Positions 21,314-30,497 of a stretch of DNA of 35,663 nucleotides are shown in pieces (within the stretch, counting starts at the first letter, position 1; every line of letters begins with the position of its first letter). Position numbers and translations under genes: made by a program. Where the stretch lies: UHGV virus genome UHGV-0076931. The stretch is one strand, 5' to 3'. This DNA is from a virus. Under the pieces are notes generated by a model, which saw only the letters and a list, made by a program, of their open reading frames with translations, had not been told where the DNA came from and ran no database searches.

Positions 21314-23065
21314 ATGATTCAGGACGCTTTTGTGCGCCAGCGTGCGCGACAACTTTACTGGCAGGGTTATCCGCCCGCAGAAATATCACGTCTGATGGGA
21401 ATAAACCCGAACACGATTTATGCGTGGAAAAAACGCGACCAGTGGGATGAAACGCCACCCGTGCAGCGTGTCACGCAGTCCATCGATGCGCGTCTCATCC
21501 AGCTTACTGAAAAACAGAATAAAACAGGCGGTGACTTCAAGGAAATAGACCTGCTGACCCGGCAGCTTAAAAAGCTGCATGATGGCCAGCCGGATGTGAC
21601 GGCCACAGGAAAGAAAGGCCGGGCGAAAAAACTCAAAAATCATTTCACGCCGGAACAGATTGCCGCACTGCGGGAAAAAATCATCAGCAGGCTGGAGTGG
21701 CATCAGCGGGGCTGGTTTGACTCCCTGACCCTTTGCAGGGAAGCCGGGATACGTAACAGGATGATCCTGAAATCCCGACAGATTGGGGCGACCTGGTATT
21801 TTGCACAGGAAGCACTGCTGATGGCGCTGCGTGACGATGTGGTGCAACCTTACCAGCGTAACCAGATTTTTTTGTCTGCGTCGCGTCGTCAGGCGTTCCA
21901 GTTTAAAAGCATTATTCAGAAGGCCGCGGCTGAAGTTGATGTGGAGCTGAAAGGGGGCGATAAAATCATCCTCTCCAACGGCGCAGAGCTGCATTTTCTC
22001 GGCACTTCTGCTGCGTCGGCGCAGTCCTATACGGGCAATTTTTATTTTGATGAATTTTTCTGGGTCAGTCGCTTTGCTGAACTGCGCAAGGTGGCTGGCG
22101 CTATGGCAACCCTCAGCGGACTGCGGCGCACCTACTTCTCCACGCCATCCACCGAAACGCACGAGGCATACGCCTACTGGAACGGCGACCGCTGGAACGA
22201 GAAAAAGGCCACGCATAAACGCCAGCGTTTTTCTGTGGACTGGAAAACGCTGCATAACGGGCTTATCTGCCCTGACCGGACGTGGCGGCAAATTGTCACG
22301 CTGGAAGATGTGGTTAATCACGGCTGGAAACACACCGATATCGACGAAATTCGTGATGAAAACACCGAAGACGAGTTCCTCAATCTCTATATGTGTGAGT
22401 TTGTCCGCGAAGGGGAATCGGCATTTAACCTGAATATCCTGATTGGCTGCGGTGTTGACGGATACGACGACTGGAAAGACTGGAAACCTTTTGCTCCCCG
22501 CCCGATGGGGAATCGTCCGGTATGGATTGGGTATGACGCAAACGGCAGCAGTGGCAACGGCGATAGCGGCGCTGTGTCCGTGGTGGTTCCTCCGTCTGTT
22601 CCTGGTGGCCGTTTTCGAACGGTGGAGACGCGACGCGTTCAGGGGCTGGAGTTTGAAGAACAGGCCAGAGTCATTGAAGAGTTCACGTGTCGCTACAACG
22701 TGGAACACATCGGCATTGATGTGACGGGCGGGAACGGGGAGGCTGTTTATCAGATAGTGAAACGGTTTTTCCCTGCCGCCATTCCGTACACCTTCACGCT
22801 GTCATCAAAACGGTCGCTGGTACTGAAAATGCTGCAAATAATGCGTGCCGGGCGGTGGGAATACGATCGCGCCGAACGCGAGCTGGTCGCGGCCTTTAAC
22901 GCCGTGCGTAAGGTGAAAACACCGGGCGGCTTTATCACTTACGAAACGGACCGTGCGAGGGGGATCAGCCACGGCGACCTTGCGTGGGCAACCATGCTTG
23001 CTGTCATTAACGAACCAATTGGCGGCGAAGGAGAAAACGAGCGTTTCACGGTTATGGAGTTCTGA
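21314..23065 (+). CDS. P: Terminase large (ATPase) subunit P
   Basis: 583 aa; GGGGGAG SD; size and position match P2 gpP. Confidence 0.9.
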   Translation: MIQDAFVRQRARQLYWQGYPPAEISRLMGINPNTIYAWKKRDQWDETPPVQRVTQSIDARLIQLTEKQNKTGGDFKEIDLLTRQLKKLHDGQPDVTATGKKGRAKKLKNHFTPEQIAALREKIISRLEWHQRGWFDSLTLCREAGIRNRMILKSRQIGATWYFAQEALLMALRDDVVQPYQRNQIFLSASRRQAFQFKSIIQKAAAEVDVELKGGDKIILSNGAELHFLGTSAASAQSYTGNFYFDEFFWVSRFAELRKVAGAMATLSGLRRTYFSTPSTETHEAYAYWNGDRWNEKKATHKRQRFSVDWKTLHNGLICPDRTWRQIVTLEDVVNHGWKHTDIDEIRDENTEDEFLNLYMCEFVREGESAFNLNILIGCGVDGYDDWKDWKPFAPRPMGNRPVWIGYDANGSSGNGDSGAVSVVVPPSVPGGRFRTVETRRVQGLEFEEQARVIEEFTCRYNVEHIGIDVTGGNGEAVYQIVKRFFPAAIPYTFTLSSKRSLVLKMLQIMRAGRWEYDRAERELVAAFNAVRKVKTPGGFITYETDRARGISHGDLAWATMLAVINEPIGGEGENERFTVMEF

Positions 23066-24111
23066 TGAGCAGAAAAAATAAAAAAGTGCGCATGAGTTCA
23101 CGCATTGATCTCGCTGATGCGCTCAGGAAAGAATCGTCGCTCAGTGCATTCACATTTGATGGTCCTTATCGCCTGACCGGGCATGATCTGCTGGATAATA
23201 TGTACTGTGCTGATAACGGGCGGTGGTATGAAACCCCGGTGGACTGGTACGGTCTGGCAAGAGCTGCCCGGCAAACGTCCTGGCATCAGTCTGCGCTTTA
23301 CTTTAAGCGCAATGTATTGCTCGGTTGCTATATTCCGCACCCGCTGCTTTCCCGGCAGGATTTCTCGGCGCTGGCGCTGGACTGGTTTATGTTCGGTAAC
23401 GCATTCCTTGAGCTTCGAAACAATATGCTCGGCGAACCGCTTAAATTACGGCACGCTCTGGCGAAATACATGCGACGCGGAAGCGATCTTGAATCATGGT
23501 GGTATGTGCAGGATGGCAAGGACGCGTTCCAGTTTCGCCCTGGCAAAGTGTGCCACCTGATGAATCCGGATATTAACCAGGAAATCTACGGCATGCCGGA
23601 ATATCTTGGCGCATTACTCTCGGCCAGCCTGTCTCATTCGGCGGACATGTTCAGAAAACTGTATTACGACAACGGATCCCACGCCGGGTGCATCATCTAC
23701 ATCGGTGCAGCGCAGGTAAACCGTGAAAGCATGGACTCCCTGAAAGAAACGCTACAGGGTGCACGTGGTGGTGGTGCGTTTAAAAACGTGCTCATTCATG
23801 CGCCCAACGGGGGCAAAGAAGGTGTGCAAATTTTGCCGTTCCAGCAGATCACCGCAAAGGATGAGTTCATGAATGTTAAGTCGGCATCCCGTGATGATGT
23901 GCTGGCTGCGCACCGCGTTCCGCCGCAACTGATGGGGGCGATGCCGGGCGAAAAAAGTGCGTTTGGTGATGTGGAGAAGGCCGCGCGGGTTTACGCAATT
24001 AACGAGCTGATGCCTGTCATGGAGGCCATGAAGCACATCAATGACTGGCTTGGCGAAGAGGTGATCCGTTTTAATTCTTATGCTCTTCTTGATGAAAAAA
24101 CAGCCCCGTGA
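23065..24111 (+). CDS. Q: Portal protein Q
   Basis: 348 aa; start overlaps the P stop (ATGA); size and position match P2 gpQ. Confidence 0.9.
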   Translation: MSRKNKKVRMSSRIDLADALRKESSLSAFTFDGPYRLTGHDLLDNMYCADNGRWYETPVDWYGLARAARQTSWHQSALYFKRNVLLGCYIPHPLLSRQDFSALALDWFMFGNAFLELRNNMLGEPLKLRHALAKYMRRGSDLESWWYVQDGKDAFQFRPGKVCHLMNPDINQEIYGMPEYLGALLSASLSHSADMFRKLYYDNGSHAGCIIYIGAAQVNRESMDSLKETLQGARGGGAFKNVLIHAPNGGKEGVQILPFQQITAKDEFMNVKSASRDDVLAAHRVPPQLMGAMPGEKSAFGDVEKAARVYAINELMPVMEAMKHINDWLGEEVIRFNSYALLDEKTAP

Positions 24112-24127
24112 TGGGGCTGTCCTTTTT
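24101..24127. terminator. Bidirectional intrinsic terminator between convergent Q and the 174-aa gene
   Basis: Stem cagcccc / ggggctg with 5-nt loop, flanked by aaaaaa upstream and ttttt downstream; includes the Q stop codon. Confidence 0.7.
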
Positions 24128-24650
24128 ACCAGAGTTGAACCATTTTCTGGGTGCCGTCAGGCTTGAGATTATCAATTTCAGAGAGAACGTAATATTGAAT
24201 GGCTTCACAAACGGTGGTGTATGGTGAATTACCTTCTTTAAGTGGCACGATATTATTATTAACGCGAACCTGTATTTCATCGTTATACATTGCGATCGAA
24301 AGAGGAGTATGCACGAACGCGACTTCGCCAGGTGTGTCGTCAACCACTGTCTCAATGCTGAAAATCAGTTTTCGCTCATCATTGCCGCCCCTTGCTTTGG
24401 GGGTAGCGGCAGGAATCTGAGATAAAGGCATTCTGCGAAACCCTTCAGTTGTTTCCAGTCCGCATGAAACGTAATGCTGGCGATTACCGTCGCTATCCGT
24501 CCATGTCTGTGATGGCAGCTCCAGAGAGATTTCATAAGCATCAACAATTCCCTGGGCAAGGTGTACAAGCGGGGTCAGATCTTCATTGCGGCGAAAACTT
24601 TCCTTTACCTGCTCTCGTTTTTCTCGTAACTGCTTGTAATTAATGACCAT
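24126..24650 (-). CDS. Hypothetical protein (174 aa), accessory gene next to portal
   Basis: Lower GC than flanking phage genes; start placed at ATG 24650 with GGAGG SD (ORF extends to 24689); no recognisable motifs. Confidence 0.6.
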   Translation of the reverse strand: MVINYKQLREKREQVKESFRRNEDLTPLVHLAQGIVDAYEISLELPSQTWTDSDGNRQHYVSCGLETTEGFRRMPLSQIPAATPKARGGNDERKLIFSIETVVDDTPGEVAFVHTPLSIAMYNDEIQVRVNNNIVPLKEGNSPYTTVCEAIQYYVLSEIDNLKPDGTQKMVQLW

Positions 24651-25149
24651 AAAACAGCCTCCATTGATTTCTTTGCTCGTATTTTGCACTTATGAAGTGT
24701 GGTCGGCAAGGTGCCGCATCACTGACGCGCTTCGCTTGTCTGCTGCTTCGCCGAGGCATAAAAAATTTATGCCCCGACTCTCCAGCTCCTGTATCAATCA
24801 GATAATTTCACGACGTCTTCCGACTTATCGCTATCATCGACAGTCAGGCTCTTACGCAATCCCGCCGCGCTGACTGCATGTTCTCGCCGCCTCAGTGCGA
24901 TTTTAATGGCCTTACCTTTCATCCCATCAAATCAGAACCCCTTACGTCTTTTTCACGTTCAGTGTGAGCGATACAGCCATTCTGTTGTGTCGCTGCGACA
25001 TCGTTCAGGGAATGCTATTTACCCCCTGAAACGCGGGCTGTTCCCCCGTCACCTGCGCGCAGAAAAAGCGCGTTTTTTTGTGCACGCACGGATCCTTGAC
25101 GGATCCAACCGCCATGCGGGCCGGAAGGGTAAAAAGTCGTTCAAAAAAA

Positions 25150-25176
25150 TTGTGCAAATTTGTGCACTATTGTGCA
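25150..25176. repeat. Three direct TTGTGCA repeats at exact 10-bp phasing
   Basis: ttgtgca at 25150, 25160 and 25170, immediately beside the terminator hairpin at 25187-25207. Confidence 0.5.
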
Positions 25177-25186
25177 TTGAAATAAA

Positions 25187-25207
25187 CGCCCTGAAAGAGG
25201 GCGTTTT
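25187..25207 (-). terminator. Intrinsic terminator ending the minus-strand accessory operon
   Basis: Stem cgccct / agggcg with loop gaaag; T-rich flank on both strands. Confidence 0.6.
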
Positions 25208-25216
25208 GGCTCATTT

Positions 25217-25477
25217 CTATAGCTTTGATGCAGGTTGGGCTAGATGTAATGGTTGGACATACCAGCCTTTTGATAACCAACTCTCTGCAACCTCTTTACT
25301 CCTTGTTATTGCTGGTATTCCGATGCCGTTATTTACATGCATCCATGCTACTGGCTCTGCTTCCAGCGATGCCAGAGCAATTTCATAAGCACGGCGTTCA
25401 ATATTGTCTCTCACGTCTAGGCTGCCTATGCGCTCTTTGATTTCTTTAATCATTTCTTTGTCGGTTAAAGTGGTCAT
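25217..25477 (-). CDS. Hypothetical protein (86 aa)
   Basis: ORF in tight operon arrangement; no recognisable motifs. Confidence 0.5.
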   Translation of the reverse strand: MTTLTDKEMIKEIKERIGSLDVRDNIERRAYEIALASLEAEPVAWMHVNNGIGIPAITRSKEVAESWLSKGWYVQPLHLAQPASKL

Positions 25478-25487
25478 GGGTCAGTTC

Positions 25488-25613
25488 TCAACCAATAGTT
25501 ATGTGAATGAAAGAAAGCAGCCAAAGAATGGACTCAATAACTGCCCAACCAATAACGGCGCAAATGACACCGAAAACAACGAAAAAACCAGTACCAGGCA
25601 AATTATTGAACAT
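25488..25613 (-). CDS. Small hydrophobic membrane peptide (41 aa)
   Basis: Hand translation MFNNLPGTGFFVVFGVICAVIGWAVIESILWLLSFIHITIG; AAGGAG SD; ATG 2 nt after the upstream stop; not in the ORF track. Confidence 0.4.
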   Translation of the reverse strand: MFNNLPGTGFFVVFGVICAVIGWAVIESILWLLSFIHITIG

Positions 25614-25615
25614 CC

Positions 25616-25930
25616 TCACTCTCCTTTGATGCCAGTGTTTACAACCTGACAAGCCTCTTTGAGCACCCAGTCAATAGCATCTTTCCATGCTCCGGTTTCG
25701 GCTGGCGGATTCTCACGCTTTACCAGTTCATAGAAACGTACTGCTCTAACCAGTCCATCTGACGGTTTTGCCTGTAGTGCAGCCTGAGCTATGCGGTATG
25801 CCTGGAGTATACGGGCGTCGTTGATATCCATTCCGAACGGAATTTCTGATGATTGTGATTCTGCATCTTCAAGCCTGGCAATTTCTTTACGTAAAAAGTA
25901 TTTCAACTCTTGTTTTTGTTTTCTGTTCAT
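25616..25930 (-). CDS. Hypothetical protein (104 aa)
   Basis: ORF with 4-nt overlap to the upstream gene; no recognisable motifs. Confidence 0.55.
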
Positions 25931-26259
25931 GCGTTTTTTTCCTTTTTGTCTGTCACTTCTTTCCTGATAATTTCATTGCACAAATCCACGCACTCATTGC
26001 AGATGTAAACAGACGGTCCGGCAATCACCTTTGTGACTTCGTACTGGGATTTATTGCAGAAACTGCAATAAACCGTCTTCTCGCCTGAAGTCCATGTTTT
26101 GCTGGTTTCGCCAGACATCAGTTGTTTGAGGTCTTTTTCACGACGAAGAACTATCTGGCCACATTCAGCTATTTTTTGGATGTTGACATTTTCTTCTTTC
26201 GCCAGCGCTTCCATCCGCTCAATCAGTCGCTGCGCTTTTTCTCTGTCAATGTGTTGCAT
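25927..26259 (-). CDS. Small protein with ClpX-type C4 zinc-finger domain (110 aa)
   Basis: C-terminal half [34 protein letters not shown] closely resembles the N-terminal zinc-binding domain of ClpX; no AAA+ domain; AAGGGGGA SD. Confidence 0.7.
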
Positions 26260-26322
26260 TGTGTCCCCCTTGTTTATGCTCCCGGGTTAAAGTCATCAGG
26301 GCGGATGCGCCCTGATGTTGTG

Positions 26323-26634
26323 TTATTCGGGAAATAACGCCCGGATATTTCCGGCCATCTGACTGGTTATCTGTGCGGTTGATACTGGCTGTGACGCGGG
26401 GCGTTCTGTCCTGGTTTGTGGCACTGATAACGCCTCATCATCAGCCCATGCAGCCAGTCGGTAAGCCTCTGCCGGATTCATTTTCAGTAGTGCCAGCCCG
26501 GCCAGAAAAGCCACGCGTTGGCCGCTTTTGCGGGCTTCTGGTGTAAGGCTGTCCAGCCAGGCGCATGCTTCGCCTTCGTTCTTGACGGCGGCGGGCTTCA
26601 GATAGAAACTTATCCGTCTGGTTGGTGTTGTCAT
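26323..26634 (-). CDS. parR: ParR-like partition adaptor / repressor
   Basis: Start at ATG 26634 with AAGGAG SD, 4 nt after the parM stop; RISFYLKP...LAGLALL...NIRALFPE pattern as I recall it from R1 ParR. Confidence 0.65.
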   Translation of the reverse strand: MTTPTRRISFYLKPAAVKNEGEACAWLDSLTPEARKSGQRVAFLAGLALLKMNPAEAYRLAAWADDEALSVPQTRTERPASQPVSTAQITSQMAGNIRALFPE

Positions 26635-26638
26635 TGGT

Positions 26639-27598
26639 TTACTCCTTGTCCATTGCGTACAGCCCATTAACCAGAGCAAACTGTGGCACCCCGTCCGCGA
26701 TGAAAGTCGCATTAACTCCGCAGGCTTCGCGGATAGCGGGTGCCACAATCTCCGCCCCTCCACCGACAACCATCGCCCGCCCGTAACCCGAAAAACCCGC
26801 CAGCGCGCGGATCACGCGTTGTTTCAGTGTTTCTTCCTTTTCACGAATAACAGCCATCAGGCTGTCGTAATGCGCGTCATTGTGGATGTGCTGGCGCAGC
26901 CAGGCTTCATCATGGCGATGTTCGATAATGGTATTGGCGATATGGTGACTGGTGCGCATACCGTTAGTGGCCATCACCGACAGTACGGCATCGGCCATCA
27001 GGGAAACGCCTACGTGTGGATCGCAAAACACCTGGCTGATACCTGCCAGTTGCCCCTGAACCTTTGCCACATCCAGCGTGGTTCCGCCCAAATCCACAAT
27101 CAGCAGGGATTCAAACGGACTCATGTCAGCCAGTGCTTTAAAGCCAGCCGGAATGGATTCAGGCATAACCCGCACGTTACGGATAGTGAATGCTTCGCCG
27201 TTCTGGTACTCCACCGGGCGCATAACGTTCGCTTTTTTGCGGTTGATGTTGGCCATGTCCGGCTGTGCGTTTGTGTCGAAATACTCGCTCAGTGGCAGGG
27301 TGACAACCACATCCACCTCCTGTGGCGTGATGCCTGATTTGACCAGCGCGTGATGAATGGCAATTACATTCACATCGCTGTACTGGTATTGCGTGTCGGT
27401 CGTCTGGACAAAGCGATCGCTGACCGGATCAAAACCATAGCGCACGCCATCAAGCATGTAGTTTGCGGGCTGCGTGCCACCGAACGGCGCAGACCATTCC
27501 GACTTGAAGCTGTTCGGGCTGATGGCGTTGCGGCGTTCTCCGTTCTCAGTCCATGCCAGCTTGATGTTGGTGGAGCCGTCATCGATACAAATTTTCAT
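26639..27598 (-). CDS. parM: ParM (StbA) actin-like plasmid segregation ATPase
   Basis: Collinear match to R1 ParM blocks: IDDGSTNIKL, ISPNSFK, YSDVNVIAIHHAL, VMPESIPAGF, DLGGTTLD, GGGAE, LVNGLY. Confidence 0.88.
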   Translation of the reverse strand: MKICIDDGSTNIKLAWTENGERRNAISPNSFKSEWSAPFGGTQPANYMLDGVRYGFDPVSDRFVQTTDTQYQYSDVNVIAIHHALVKSGITPQEVDVVVTLPLSEYFDTNAQPDMANINRKKANVMRPVEYQNGEAFTIRNVRVMPESIPAGFKALADMSPFESLLIVDLGGTTLDVAKVQGQLAGISQVFCDPHVGVSLMADAVLSVMATNGMRTSHHIANTIIEHRHDEAWLRQHIHNDAHYDSLMAVIREKEETLKQRVIRALAGFSGYGRAMVVGGGAEIVAPAIREACGVNATFIADGVPQFALVNGLYAMDKE

Positions 27599-27628
27599 GT
27601 CGCTTTTCCTTATGTTGATTAATTAATC

Positions 27629-27738
27629 GTTTACGGGATTCTGAAATCCCGTTTTTGCCTGTTTTATGCGCGCTTCATATATCGCGGCGCGTTTTTTGCT
27701 CATTTACGGGATTTGTGAATCCCGTTTCTGTCTGTTTT
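27629..27738. repeat. parC-like site: two copies of a ~36-bp element each containing palindrome ACGGGATT-N4-AATCCCGT
   Basis: Copies at 27629-27665 and 27701-27738, directly upstream of parM; the second lies in the 3' end of the A reading frame. Confidence 0.5.
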
Positions 27739-30497
27739 TTGTTTCCACTGGTCAGGCCACCCCGCAGCAGGTCTGCTTTGCGGCGGGCGCGTTCAGTGGT
27801 TTCACTGATTCTCTGTGCGTGCTCTGCGTCGCGGATGGCGCGCAGCATGTCAGAAAGCACGGTAACGGGTGTTTTCATGGTGTTCTGGTCTTGCTGAAGT
27901 GTGGATGCCAGGCGTGCGGCGGCTTCGGGGTCTGATGCCCCCAGCTGTTCCAGATAGCTGGCGACCGGGTTATGGCGGATCTCCGTGCTGCTTACGCCGT
28001 GGTTACGGCTCAGGCGCTGCCAGAGCTGCGTGATCCGGCTGTCCGGGCGGGTATCCGGTTTGCGTACAATTTCAAATCCCTGCGGTGCAATGATGCTGCC
28101 GTCAACGTACAGACTGCCGCCCCGTAACAGGTGCTGCATCTGCTGTTCACCAATATGCAGGCCGAGAGATTCAGCAGACTCCCGCCATTCTTTAGCGAGT
28201 AATTCGTGGTTATCAGGCAAAGGCCGCAGCTGTTTGCGGCTCTGTGTCCAGCTCTGCATTTCATCACTGCTGTTTTTTGCCTGTTTGTCACGAAGCGAAC
28301 GCATCAGCGCCCGGCGTTCGTGCCGTTTCAGTGAGCGCATCCATTCGTTCACTTCAACGCCGTCAGGGAGCTGCGGCCACGGTGCTGGCCGTTCTTCCGG
28401 CTGTTCTGTCCCGTTGTTGTCCGTTTCCTGTACACGGGGACAGTTATTGCCACGAGTCCAAGGGGCGGCAGGGCCGCCCTGAAGGTCAAAACCATTTTCG
28501 TGGGCGTTGTCTTCTGGTTCTGGTTTACGTCTTACCAATTTCCAGTTATCCGGATGCGTGCACACACGGGAGGATTCCCCGATGAGTGGTGACCAGATCC
28601 CGTAAATCTGTACGCTCTGTTCGCCGTAATCGTTCAGCTCATCTGCGAGGTCGTAGGCGGTGCGAATCAGGTAGTCCTTGCGTGGAACAAGCACGCCACC
28701 CTGTTTTTCAATGTAGGTGGCAAAACACCCGGCATCGGCGGCAGCGAGTACCGCATCCATTGCATCATCTTTCAGCCGTTGCGGGCCTTCCGGATTGCGT
28801 GCCATCTGGCTGGCAAGGCGGCGCAGTTCACGCCACACCTGACGGGAGGGGATGCCAAAGAACTGGAACTGACGGACCCGGTGAAGGCGCGCCCAGCCGA
28901 TGGCGCGCTCCACGCTCTCGGCCATTGATTTTCCGGTTTCGTGGTCAACGCGTGGCTTGCCCGTTTTCGGGTCGATGCCATCCACGGCGCGGCTGTCCAG
29001 GTTCTTTCCGATGTAGGTGGCGATGTAGCTGGTTGGTGTGCCTTTTGAGCCGTCGACATACTCCGCCTTAAAACGCGGAGTTATGTCATCGCCCAGCTCG
29101 TGGCGGTCCTCCTGAATGGCAATATCGCAGACGTGGGACACGATGGTTTCAATCTCGTCCGGATGTGCAAAGACCATCATATGCCAGTGCACAGTGCCGT
29201 CATGGTGAGGCTCCACCGTGCGGATGCCATACCAGCGCAGGCCGTCGCGGTTCAGTTTTTTGCGGACCGCCGCAAAAAACGTGTTAACCAGGTAATCGCT
29301 GGAGTCGCGCATGGTGGCCCCGTTCCATTTGGGGTTCGGATGACCGTTCTCCGTTGTTGCGTGGTATTTTGACGGGCAGGTGACGGTCAGAAACACCGCT
29401 CTGTCGCCACGGGCTTCGGCCAGAAGTTCCAGTCCCTTCATGGTGGCCATCATTTCTGCCTTACGGTGAACCGGGTTACTTACTCCCGCGTAATACACCG
29501 TCTCGAGATCAATCGTGAACCCGTCTTCATTTTCCAGCATGAAACTTTTCAGGAAATCGCGTGTTTTCTCGCGCTGTGCGCGAAACTCGCTTAACGCGTC
29601 CTGGCTCAGATAGGGCGATGTTTTTCTGGAAACCAGACAGGCGGCGCGGAGTTGTTCTTCTCTCCACTCGCAACGTAACAGCCACAGTTTGCGTTTCCAC
29701 CATTCCGCACAGGTCAGGCGAAGGATTGCGCCCGGCAGCAGCTCCGTGTCCGGTTCGTTCCTCCGGTCTTTATCTGTTGTCAGTGCGTCATAATGTGGAG
29801 GCATGATGTGCAGGTGTAACGCCATGCGGGCCAGCATCTGATACGCCTTCAGCGTTACATCCATGGTCAGTTCGCCATCGGTCGCGCCAAAGCCATCGCA
29901 GAGTTTTTCGAAGGTGCTGCTGAACATCGCCGCCGTCATGGTGGCCAGCGTCTGTATCTGGTGTTTGTTGAGCTGCGGCAGGTAAAGCAAATCGTCCAGG
30001 CGTTCGCGTCCGGCAAGGGAGCGATAACCCGGTGTCAGCCAGCGTCCGTCAGTGCGATCCAGACGTTCGAATATTTTGCGTAGGGTTCCGCGTGCATAGC
30101 GTTCCGCCTGCCAGCTCTTTTTGCCTTTCCGGCGATCGGCTTCCTGTTTTTTGCGCAGGAAGGAGAGGTGGCGAATAAGCGGATCGCGCAGATAGGACGG
30201 CAGCAGGCGCAGCGAGGCCATGGCTTCATCCACCGCGTCGCGTGCCTGTTTTCTGGCGTCTCCTGCCAGTGTGATGGTTTTGTCCTGTTTTTCCTGTGCG
30301 TCCAGGCTTTTATTAATCAGGTTGCCCAGCGGCGTGGCGGAGAACGCCGCATCAGCCATTTCCTGGCGGCGCTCGTTCTCTACCCGGTAGGCATCCAGCC
30401 AGGAGGAAAGCGCGGATCCAGGAGCGGGGATCCCCGTTCCTTCACGCCCCACTGCGTGGCGCGGTTGTTGCCAGTCCCTGATGTACTCTGCCGTCAT
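27675..30497 (-). CDS. A: Replication initiation endonuclease A (rolling-circle, HUH type)
   Basis: 940 aa; HUH motif in HWHMMVF and paired tyrosines in YIATYIGK as in P2 gpA; longer than P2 A at the C-terminus. Confidence 0.9.
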   Translation of the reverse strand: MTAEYIRDWQQPRHAVGREGTGIPAPGSALSSWLDAYRVENERRQEMADAAFSATPLGNLINKSLDAQEKQDKTITLAGDARKQARDAVDEAMASLRLLPSYLRDPLIRHLSFLRKKQEADRRKGKKSWQAERYARGTLRKIFERLDRTDGRWLTPGYRSLAGRERLDDLLYLPQLNKHQIQTLATMTAAMFSSTFEKLCDGFGATDGELTMDVTLKAYQMLARMALHLHIMPPHYDALTTDKDRRNEPDTELLPGAILRLTCAEWWKRKLWLLRCEWREEQLRAACLVSRKTSPYLSQDALSEFRAQREKTRDFLKSFMLENEDGFTIDLETVYYAGVSNPVHRKAEMMATMKGLELLAEARGDRAVFLTVTCPSKYHATTENGHPNPKWNGATMRDSSDYLVNTFFAAVRKKLNRDGLRWYGIRTVEPHHDGTVHWHMMVFAHPDEIETIVSHVCDIAIQEDRHELGDDITPRFKAEYVDGSKGTPTSYIATYIGKNLDSRAVDGIDPKTGKPRVDHETGKSMAESVERAIGWARLHRVRQFQFFGIPSRQVWRELRRLASQMARNPEGPQRLKDDAMDAVLAAADAGCFATYIEKQGGVLVPRKDYLIRTAYDLADELNDYGEQSVQIYGIWSPLIGESSRVCTHPDNWKLVRRKPEPEDNAHENGFDLQGGPAAPWTRGNNCPRVQETDNNGTEQPEERPAPWPQLPDGVEVNEWMRSLKRHERRALMRSLRDKQAKNSSDEMQSWTQSRKQLRPLPDNHELLAKEWRESAESLGLHIGEQQMQHLLRGGSLYVDGSIIAPQGFEIVRKPDTRPDSRITQLWQRLSRNHGVSSTEIRHNPVASYLEQLGASDPEAAARLASTLQQDQNTMKTPVTVLSDMLRAIRDAEHAQRISETTERARRKADLLRGGLTSGNKKQTETGFTNPVNEQKTRRDI

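Follow-up and report, generated by a model that had tools for sequence, protein, structure and literature searches.

Four small accessory genes in the gpA-to-portal slot of a P88-like prophage, one carrying a ClpX-type zinc-binding domain

When four small genes overlap or nearly touch, do they make up one system, or do they only share a slot? The question is raised by the viral genome UHGV-0076931, in which four open reading frames (ORFs), named here g1 to g4, follow one another on the minus strand between positions 25217 and 26259, 3' of the partition gene parR. The window analyzed is the whole stretch of 35,663 nucleotides (nt) that contains them, a P88-like prophage of the P2 family; P88 and its relatives (Xuanwuvirus, Peduoviridae) match the region at 95–97% identity. 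An earlier note on this DNA, made from the sequence alone, had proposed a co-translated functional module, possibly forming a single system with ParM and ParR. Our analysis points elsewhere: recombination has likely strung together four small and mutually independent accessory (moron-type) genes in the variable gpA-to-portal slot, and the region is not a dedicated four-component system.

Packing and distribution of the four genes

The ORFs encode 110, 104, 41, and 86 amino acids (aa), respectively (g1, 25927-26259; g2, 25616-25930; g3, 25488-25613, counted from its ATG; g4, 25217-25477; all minus strand), and they are packed as closely as the earlier note had described. The g1/g2 junction is a 4-nt ATGA overlap with AAAGGA upstream. 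Only 2 nt separate the g2 stop codon from the ATG of g3, whose ribosome-binding site (RBS), AAGGAG, is made of the final codons of g2, and 10 nt separate the g3 stop codon from the ATG of g4. An in-frame TTG upstream offers g3 an alternative start, giving 54 aa. The claim that the array ends at an intrinsic terminator also held: RNA folding places an intrinsic-terminator-like hairpin at 25179-25205 of the minus strand (stem 25185-25205), i.e., an 8-bp G+C-rich stem located 12 nt 3' of the g4 stop codon and followed by UAUUUCAAU, a partial U-tract. Its 66-nt context folds at -20.6 kcal/mol (z = -4.4), a value equalled by none of 200 shuffles, and the hairpin is terminator-like on the plus strand too. 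The imperfect U-tract kept it from being picked up by a strict scan for consensus terminators.

All four ORFs are real genes. The RefSeq record of a genome identical over this stretch annotates g1, g2, and g4, although not g3, and the pooled pN/pS among alleles is 0.17 for the zinc domain of g1, 0.38 for g2, and 0.09 for g4. Plus-strand ORFs that overlap the region (160, 71, 81, and 79 aa) were set aside: RefSeq has minus-strand coding sequences (CDSs) only at this place in the identical genome, and no separate search was made for them.

The location of the array corresponds, as had been proposed, to the interval that holds tin and old in P2. The gpA replication endonuclease gene (27675-30497, minus strand; PF05840) lies on one side and the portal gene (23065-24111, plus strand; identified through its homologues annotated as portal genes in P88 and E. 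coli) on the other, and the content between them varies among related prophages. Rousset et al. (2022) described as a hotspot what lies between gpA and the portal gene gpQ in P2-like phages (old and tin in P2 itself), counted 1,650 arrangements among 18,150 hotspot loci, found a putative partition system in the hotspot of about a quarter of P2-like phages, and noted hotspot genes with functions other than defense (PMC9122126). The array resembles this cargo in position and in extreme variability. Their Table S5A lists an arrangement of 'StbA + Plasmid_stab_B + zf-C4_ClpX + hypothetical x3' that includes WP_001163782, which is g1 (PMC9122126). The array is an ordinary, if rare, mosaic in a known hotspot, with a closely similar arrangement already in a published supplementary table. 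The g3-bearing layout of the window is a rare recombinant found in two strains. Taken as a four-gene system, the array would be just another of those 1,650 arrangements and of little importance.

Gene-neighborhood conservation, by which the earlier note had proposed to judge its module, speaks against it: the genes are not co-conserved in other genomes. A census of 5,426 complete genomes of E. coli found the parMR segment in 1,307 (740 at 80% coverage or more), g1 in 112, and the g3 segment in 34, and the intact four-gene stretch in two strains only (sheep isolates, four records). Forty-one IMG/VR contigs picked by homology to g1 gave a similar impression of independent presence and absence. 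There, parMR lies upstream in all but two contigs, both incomplete, while the downstream genes come and go: g2 in 23 contigs, g4 in 11, and g3 in none, with the g2 leader joined to a different C-terminus following g1 in four. ORF clustering distinguished at least 10 layouts between g1 and the portal gene. For instance, g1 may be followed by g2 only (P88 type); by g2, an XF1762-family gene, an 87-aa gene, and g4 (UTI89); by g2, a 64-aa gene, a DUF4014 gene, an 87-aa gene, and g4; by g2, a 95-aa gene, and g4; by a 174-aa and a 147-aa gene; or by a 118-aa and an 87-aa gene. Thus, each of g2, g3, and g4 can be separated from g1 and from the other two.

A possible tie to ParM and ParR fares no better. 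The counts of 112 and 1,307 genomes mean that g1 accompanies ~9% of ParMR loci, and the accessible part of Table S5A of Rousset et al. gives a similar proportion, with 43 mentions of zf-C4_ClpX against 489 of StbA (PMC9122126). Where ParMR stands without g1, the cargo is quite different: L148 has one ead/Ea22-like gene, of 196 aa, L149 a truncated one, L150 (O157:H7) an IS3 element, L003 (Citrobacter phage Shae_phiSM) a membrane gene on the opposite strand, and L151 nothing annotated. Conversely, some diverged P2-like prophages of Salmonella and E. coli that have no ParM or ParR carry a g1 homologue of 36–54% identity in this slot between gpA and the portal gene. The small genes upstream of these homologues were considered as ParR candidates and rejected, having neither Pfam matches nor BLAST similarity. 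With ParMR loci that lack g1 and g1 loci that lack ParMR, g1 is therefore separable from parMR, and a fixed g1-parMR unit was rejected.

The tight spacing, then, reflects compact, junction-conserving recombination of phage accessory genes and is no proof of shared function. More generally, close packing is by itself weak evidence for a functional module in a phage accessory region.

Modules shared with lambdoid phages and the origin of the layout

The proteins encoded by g2 and g4 are domain-shuffled members of a pool of lambdoid early-region proteins (ead/Ea22/DUF551), as judged by shared modules, and neither is a formal member of PF13935 or PF04448. The g2 product, an all-helical mosaic protein, consists of a leader module (residues 1-56) specific to this context and a C-terminal module of 46 aa (C-module) common to many lambdoid prophage proteins. 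In alignments, this C-module is near-invariant behind many different N-terminal modules, including the leader of g4 itself, and some of the relatives that share it carry PF13935 Ead_Ea22 (P0191, P0195, P0224-226). As for g4, tblastn finds its first 44 residues at 81–93% identity in early-left genes of Stx and lambdoid phages annotated as EaA, Ea22, or DUF551. The whole protein corresponds to the N-terminal ~82 residues, i.e., leader plus middle module, of DUF551 proteins of 149–150 aa (P0273-P0276) from which the DUF551 part is missing; homologues that bear PF04448 span 95% of g4 at 82–88% identity. A short leader/linker motif is shared between g2 and g4, and their PHROGs matches (phrog_26213 and phrog_660 for g2; phrog_5117, phrog_660, and phrog_60 for g4) have phrog_660 in common and are all unannotated as to function.

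Compared with the ead/Ea22-like and DUF551 proteins of the lambdoid exo-xis/early-left region (PF13935, PF04448; PMC7093339, PMC10834534), g2 and g4 share whole modules at 60–95% identity and the same build, consisting of a leader, a linker (…ALASLEAEPVAW…), and a swappable C-terminal module. The differences are as plain: neither has any Pfam match, neither scores on PF13935 at E ≤ 0.1, and g4, which lacks DUF551, does not match PF04448. Sequence searches of the PDB with g2 and g4 found no match and no similarity to the solved C-terminal domain of λ Ea22. A pro-lysogenic phenotype has been reported for λ Ea22 (PMC7093339); given this lack of similarity, it is not transferable to g2 or g4. AlphaFold2 models g2 as four helices (pLDDT 65), and Foldseek finds nothing in the PDB better than E = 1 for this model. 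NCBIfam valS matches to g4 were rejected as spurious, and it is such matches that explain the 'valyl-tRNA synthetase' labels of g4 relatives. Database names are misleading for relatives of two other genes as well: 'carboxylate--amine ligase' is found among g1 relatives and 'ycgB' among g2 relatives.

The third gene has a different background. It encodes a very hydrophobic peptide of 41 aa, with a grand average of hydropathy (GRAVY) of 1.65, and tblastn detects full-length homologues with 85% identity in Avunavirus Av-05 and 51–68% in Klebsiella, Cronobacter, Serratia, and Edwardsiella phages. Homologues are also present in jumbo phages. Some are annotated as CDSs of their own with 41–42 aa, one of them as 'transmembrane domain-containing'. 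By these homologies, g3 is a widespread phage membrane peptide of 41 aa and a real gene family. PGAP leaves it unannotated in every E. coli record examined (L004, L145, L146, L147), always as a 138-bp gap. The 34 E. coli genomes with the g3 segment carry it in the lambdoid early-left region, in the lambdoid nin region, or on plasmids of ~90 kb. In the virulent phage Av-05 and its relatives, a g3 homologue (1801-1926 of L153) and a homologue of the C-terminal region of g2 (3058-3444) are ~1.2 kb from each other within a cluster of small early genes, in reversed order with respect to the window.

How g3 came to sit between g2 and g4 can be read from two sets of matches. In the nin region of a lambdoid prophage (L147), the gene on one side of g3 ends in the g2 C-module and the gene on the other side begins with the g4 leader; over the 420 bp that cover the g4 leader, g3, and the g2 C-module (window positions 25342-25761), the identity to this prophage is 93.6%. 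P88 prophages of the UTI89 type match the remaining parts of the array (25150-25488 and 25615-26330) at 95–98%. The lambdoid segment would have entered a UTI89-type P88 array through the two flanking homologies. The simplest history suggested by these identities is that homologous recombination with a lambdoid prophage replaced the middle of a UTI89-type array by g3, which was probably imported in this way. The hotspot of P88-like prophages is filled with lambdoid early-region genes that recombination at shared leader and C-terminal modules has brought in, a link between the accessory gene pools of P2-like and lambdoid phages.

A peptide as hydrophobic as g3 invites another thought, namely, that g3 with g4 (or g2) is a mobile cassette of a toxic peptide and its partner, of the toxin-antitoxin or abortive-infection type, and the functional core of the locus. 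A gene with a g4-type leader follows g3 at the same 10-nt spacing both in the window and in the three other contexts examined in E. coli, as such a cassette would predict. However, g3 homologues have unrelated neighbors in other phages (a dATP/dGTP pyrophosphohydrolase gene, a glutaredoxin gene with tRNAs, other small ORFs), which argues against a fixed partner, and virulent and jumbo phages carry them too. The shared leader is itself a recombination-mediating homology, with which adjacency is expected without any function. Read from its sequence, g3 has no charged tail typical of type I toxins, and no Rfam family matches the region, where no search for an antisense partner was made. We regard the cassette as improbable.

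Another possibility is that the four genes form a new multi-gene anti-phage defense or exclusion system, expressed from the prophage and blocking competing phages. The location, an experimentally validated defense hotspot (PMC9122126), the compact operon-like layout with its terminator, and the small membrane peptide, which could be an effector, would all suit it. Yet genes of such a system should stay together, and these are not co-conserved. The validated hotspot systems are defense genes (old, tin, retrons, DprA-PRTase, and others), while g1 to g4 match no defense model and resemble lambdoid early genes instead: PADLOC-DB v2 gave no match for g1, g3, g4, or the neighboring 187-aa ORF, and only PDC-M28C for g2 (E = 0.02, 11.8 bits), and searches of Pfam and NCBIfam found no enzymatic or sensor domains. 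The genes run in the direction of the replication operon, and they lack a consensus promoter for themselves. Homologues of g2, g3, and g4 occur mainly in lambdoid early lytic regions, and those of g2 and g3 in virulent phages as well, contexts that fit host take-over or counter-defense better than prophage-expressed immunity. The hotspot also holds genes with other functions (PMC9122126). We consider a defense system very improbable.

Some observations nonetheless weigh against a string of independent genes. A protein with the g2 leader follows g1 in 27 of the 41 IMG/VR loci, with the ATGA overlap conserved, and g1 and g2 may be a functional pair. The order of g3 and a gene with a g4-type leader in the three other E. 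coli contexts examined could reflect functional linkage as an alternative to a recombination footprint. More broadly, genes that are distributed independently may still cooperate where they meet.

The free-standing ClpX zinc-binding domain of g1

The most notable part of the array is g1, a natural free copy of the adaptor-docking domain of ClpX. It is the only one of the four with a Pfam match, in keeping with the expectation that the first gene alone would have a recognizable domain. Known in RefSeq as WP_001163782 ('ClpX C4-type zinc finger protein') and in PHROGs as phrog_6797, the protein is built of a two-helix hairpin (residues 6-48), a disordered linker (51-60), and a C-terminal C4 zinc-binding domain, or ZBD (~62-102). 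It matches the Pfam profile zf-C4_ClpX (PF06689) with E = 6.8e-18 and 64.7 bits, against a cut-off of 27, over profile positions 2-38 of 39. Residues 62-102 are ~78% identical to the ZBD of E. coli ClpX (PDB 1OVX/2DS5; E = 7e-20, or 6.9e-20 for 1OVX; further structures of the domain up to 2DS8). The zinc ligands C14, C17, C36, and C39 of ClpX correspond to C65, C68, C87, and C90 of g1, of which C87 and C90 are invariant in the alignment of the g1 family and C65 and C68 are kept in at least 90% of sequences. Aligned against the published ClpX work (PMC7804408), the pocket residues are kept too, F67 and I97 of g1 standing for F16 and I46 of ClpX.

Unlike ClpX, g1 has no AAA+ ATPase module, carries its ZBD at the C-terminus rather than the N-terminus, and places a family-specific helical hairpin ahead of it. 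The full-length ClpX model TIGR00382 scores 51 bits, against a cut-off of 370.75, through its N-terminal 50 profile positions only, and NCBIfam as a whole returned only partial ClpX matches for g1. Structure prediction, a check put forward in the earlier note, was run for g1 and g2 and gave a divided outcome: the AlphaFold2 model of g1 has a confident hairpin (pLDDT 85-97), with a ZBD of lower confidence, as expected for a zinc-free monomer, while overall pLDDT values of 71 for g1 and 65 for g2 allow no inference of fold. ClpX is the sole match of the g1 model in a Foldseek search of the PDB (E = 0.01). Among 1.84 billion representative proteins, nothing outside the g1 family is related to the hairpin; a deep search with the N-terminal 58 aa returned 11 proteins, mostly fragments or members of the same family with one chance coiled-coil match, and no fusion partners that would hint at a target.

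Full-length homologues of g1 (phrog_6797) occur only in P2-like prophages of Escherichia and Salmonella. The contig scan with g1 was dominated by genuine clpX genes, the patterns being derived from the ZBD, and one full-length match (L009) was discarded as an ordinary tig-clpP-clpX-lon locus. The allelic ratio given above indicates that the ZBD is under purifying selection, and the G+C content of g1 (43%) argues against the gene having been captured recently from E. coli clpX. Over 15 alleles, pS is 0.0085 in codons 1-50 of g1 (26110-26259), as compared to 0.07 in the zinc-domain codons and 0.11 in the linker; this low synonymous diversity of the 5' half points to either a recent sweep or an anchor for recombination at the edge next to parR.

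Parts of ClpX exist in phages in several formats, since IMG/VR contigs contain both full-length ClpX and stand-alone ZBD proteins. The former (424–429 aa; L132, L133, L135, L136, L138, L139) lie in phage contigs of ~23–87 kb and, unlike g1, have a complete ATPase. The latter (153 aa in L131, 86 aa in L137) have an N-terminal ZBD with other tails, unlike the C-terminal ZBD of g1. PHROGs holds two other small phage ZBD families, phrog_12435 and phrog_5259. A literature search found no paper describing a stand-alone phage ZBD protein.

What a free ZBD might do can be considered in the light of published work on ClpX. Mutagenesis placed F16 and I46 in a hydrophobic pocket of the ZBD dimer; this pocket overlaps the site for λ O and serves trigger factor, SspB, and RssB as well (PMC7804408). 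ClpX without its ZBD no longer degrades λ O or RssB-delivered sigma-S, and still degrades ssrA-tagged substrates; the isolated ZBD binds RssB (PMC7804408, PMC7226468). From sequence identity and this biochemistry, we tentatively infer that g1 may compete for or re-route N-domain-dependent ClpXP traffic. In such a scheme, the free ZBD, borne on a phage-specific hairpin, would titrate adaptors (SspB, RssB) or N-domain-dependent substrates. Free g1 ZBD dimers, or mixed dimers with host ClpX, would compete for the docking surface, i.e., the site for SspB, RssB, and N-domain-dependent substrates such as λ O. Some ClpXP clients would then be shielded or re-routed during phage gene expression, and the outcome might be the protection of a phage replication or regulatory protein, or a block of protease-triggered toxin-antitoxin or abortive-infection responses. 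It is less likely than not that g1 founds a class of phage ClpX N-domain mimics that re-program ClpXP substrate choice during induction or lysogeny. Were g1 to interfere with ClpXP, it would represent a new way for phages to manipulate a central host protease and a ready tool to dissect N-domain-dependent proteolysis. By analogy, the zinc fold of g1 might instead serve dimerization only and leave ClpXP untouched: in the anti-sigma factor CsfB, a ZBD-like zinc fold is reported to be used only as a dimerization module (PMC5890618).

A distant P2-like contig (L129) has a Fic/Doc-like toxin gene and a Phd-like antitoxin gene (4825-5630 and 5730-5927), divergently arranged, just upstream of its g1 homologue, and the pair adjoins a ParR-like remnant (36% identity, no intact ORF). 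The Phd protein of phage P1 is a ClpXP substrate. The neighborhood is suggestive, as a single case. ClpXP is likewise a known regulator of plasmid and phage maintenance proteins. The proposal that g1, alone or together with the genes downstream, serves ParMR as an accessory, acting for example on ParR or ParM stability through ClpXP so that parM, parR, and g1 to g4 make up one maintenance system, could draw on this and on the position of g1, 63 bp after parR in every P88-like g1 locus, behind a conserved hairpin and RBS and probably co-transcribed, but it is the least probable of all, with g1 at so few ParMR loci by either count, its homologues in the same slot of P2-like prophages without ParM or ParR, and the same hairpin and RBS preceding an unrelated ead/Ea22-like gene elsewhere.

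The edges of the slot and its neighbors

The hairpin in question is a 10-bp G+C-rich stem-loop without a U-tract (26294-26317, minus strand; z = -3.2) located between the parR stop codon and the g1 RBS. Loci that begin their cargo with g1 or an ead/Ea22-like gene keep its stem and the downstream AACATAAACAAGG(A/G)G, with a different loop in the ead/Ea22-like loci, while loci with unrelated cargo diverge directly after the parR stop codon in alignments. By this pattern of conservation, the variable slot has its conserved left edge at the hairpin, which may act in attenuation or in the processing or stabilization of mRNA. The G+C content falls from 55–58% in gpA, parM, and parR to 39–45% in g1 to g4. 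A consensus scan found no sigma-70 promoter upstream of g1, and with no such promoter and no U-tract on the hairpin, the cargo appears to be transcribed from outside. Thus, g1 to g4 are probably read through from parMR or the early replication operon and stopped by the terminator after g4.

Beyond that terminator, a non-coding stretch of ~500 bp (24690-25186) separates g4 from an ORF of 187 aa, orf187 (24126-24689, minus strand; 174 aa in RefSeq), which matches phrog_5091 and has no Pfam domain. The non-coding stretch is 92–94% conserved in many P88-like phages whatever their cargo and contains a plus-strand terminator-like hairpin (25055-25073). Compared by eye, 13 of 19 bases at ~25031-25049 match the reverse complement of the P2 cos ends, although a search for the P2 cos sequence found no match with three or fewer mismatches. 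Judged from conservation and position-by-position likeness, the stretch is probably the cos region. On its far side, orf187 is variable cargo too, being found in only some P88-like loci (e.g., L002, L095, L113, and L116), and one locus (L143) has an unclustered ORF of 167 aa (F358) beside the portal gene in the position of orf187. The large terminase gene (21314-23065, plus strand) lies on the same side as the portal gene.

On the other side of the array, parR (26323-26634; PF10784) and parM (26639-27598; PF06406 and PF21523), both on the minus strand, have what defines a type II (ParMR) partition system, i.e., an actin-like ParM, a ParR adaptor, and candidate parC repeats upstream of parM; g1 to g4 fall outside the definition of this family. 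The repeats are two direct copies of 42 nt (27627-27668 and 27700-27741) just upstream of parM, 81% identical and 73 bp apart, each with an internal 8+8 palindrome (ACGGGATT-N4-AATCCCGT). By sequence, they look like a minimal parC, or ParR-binding centromere, and promoter region, the second copy of which falls within the 3' end of gpA.

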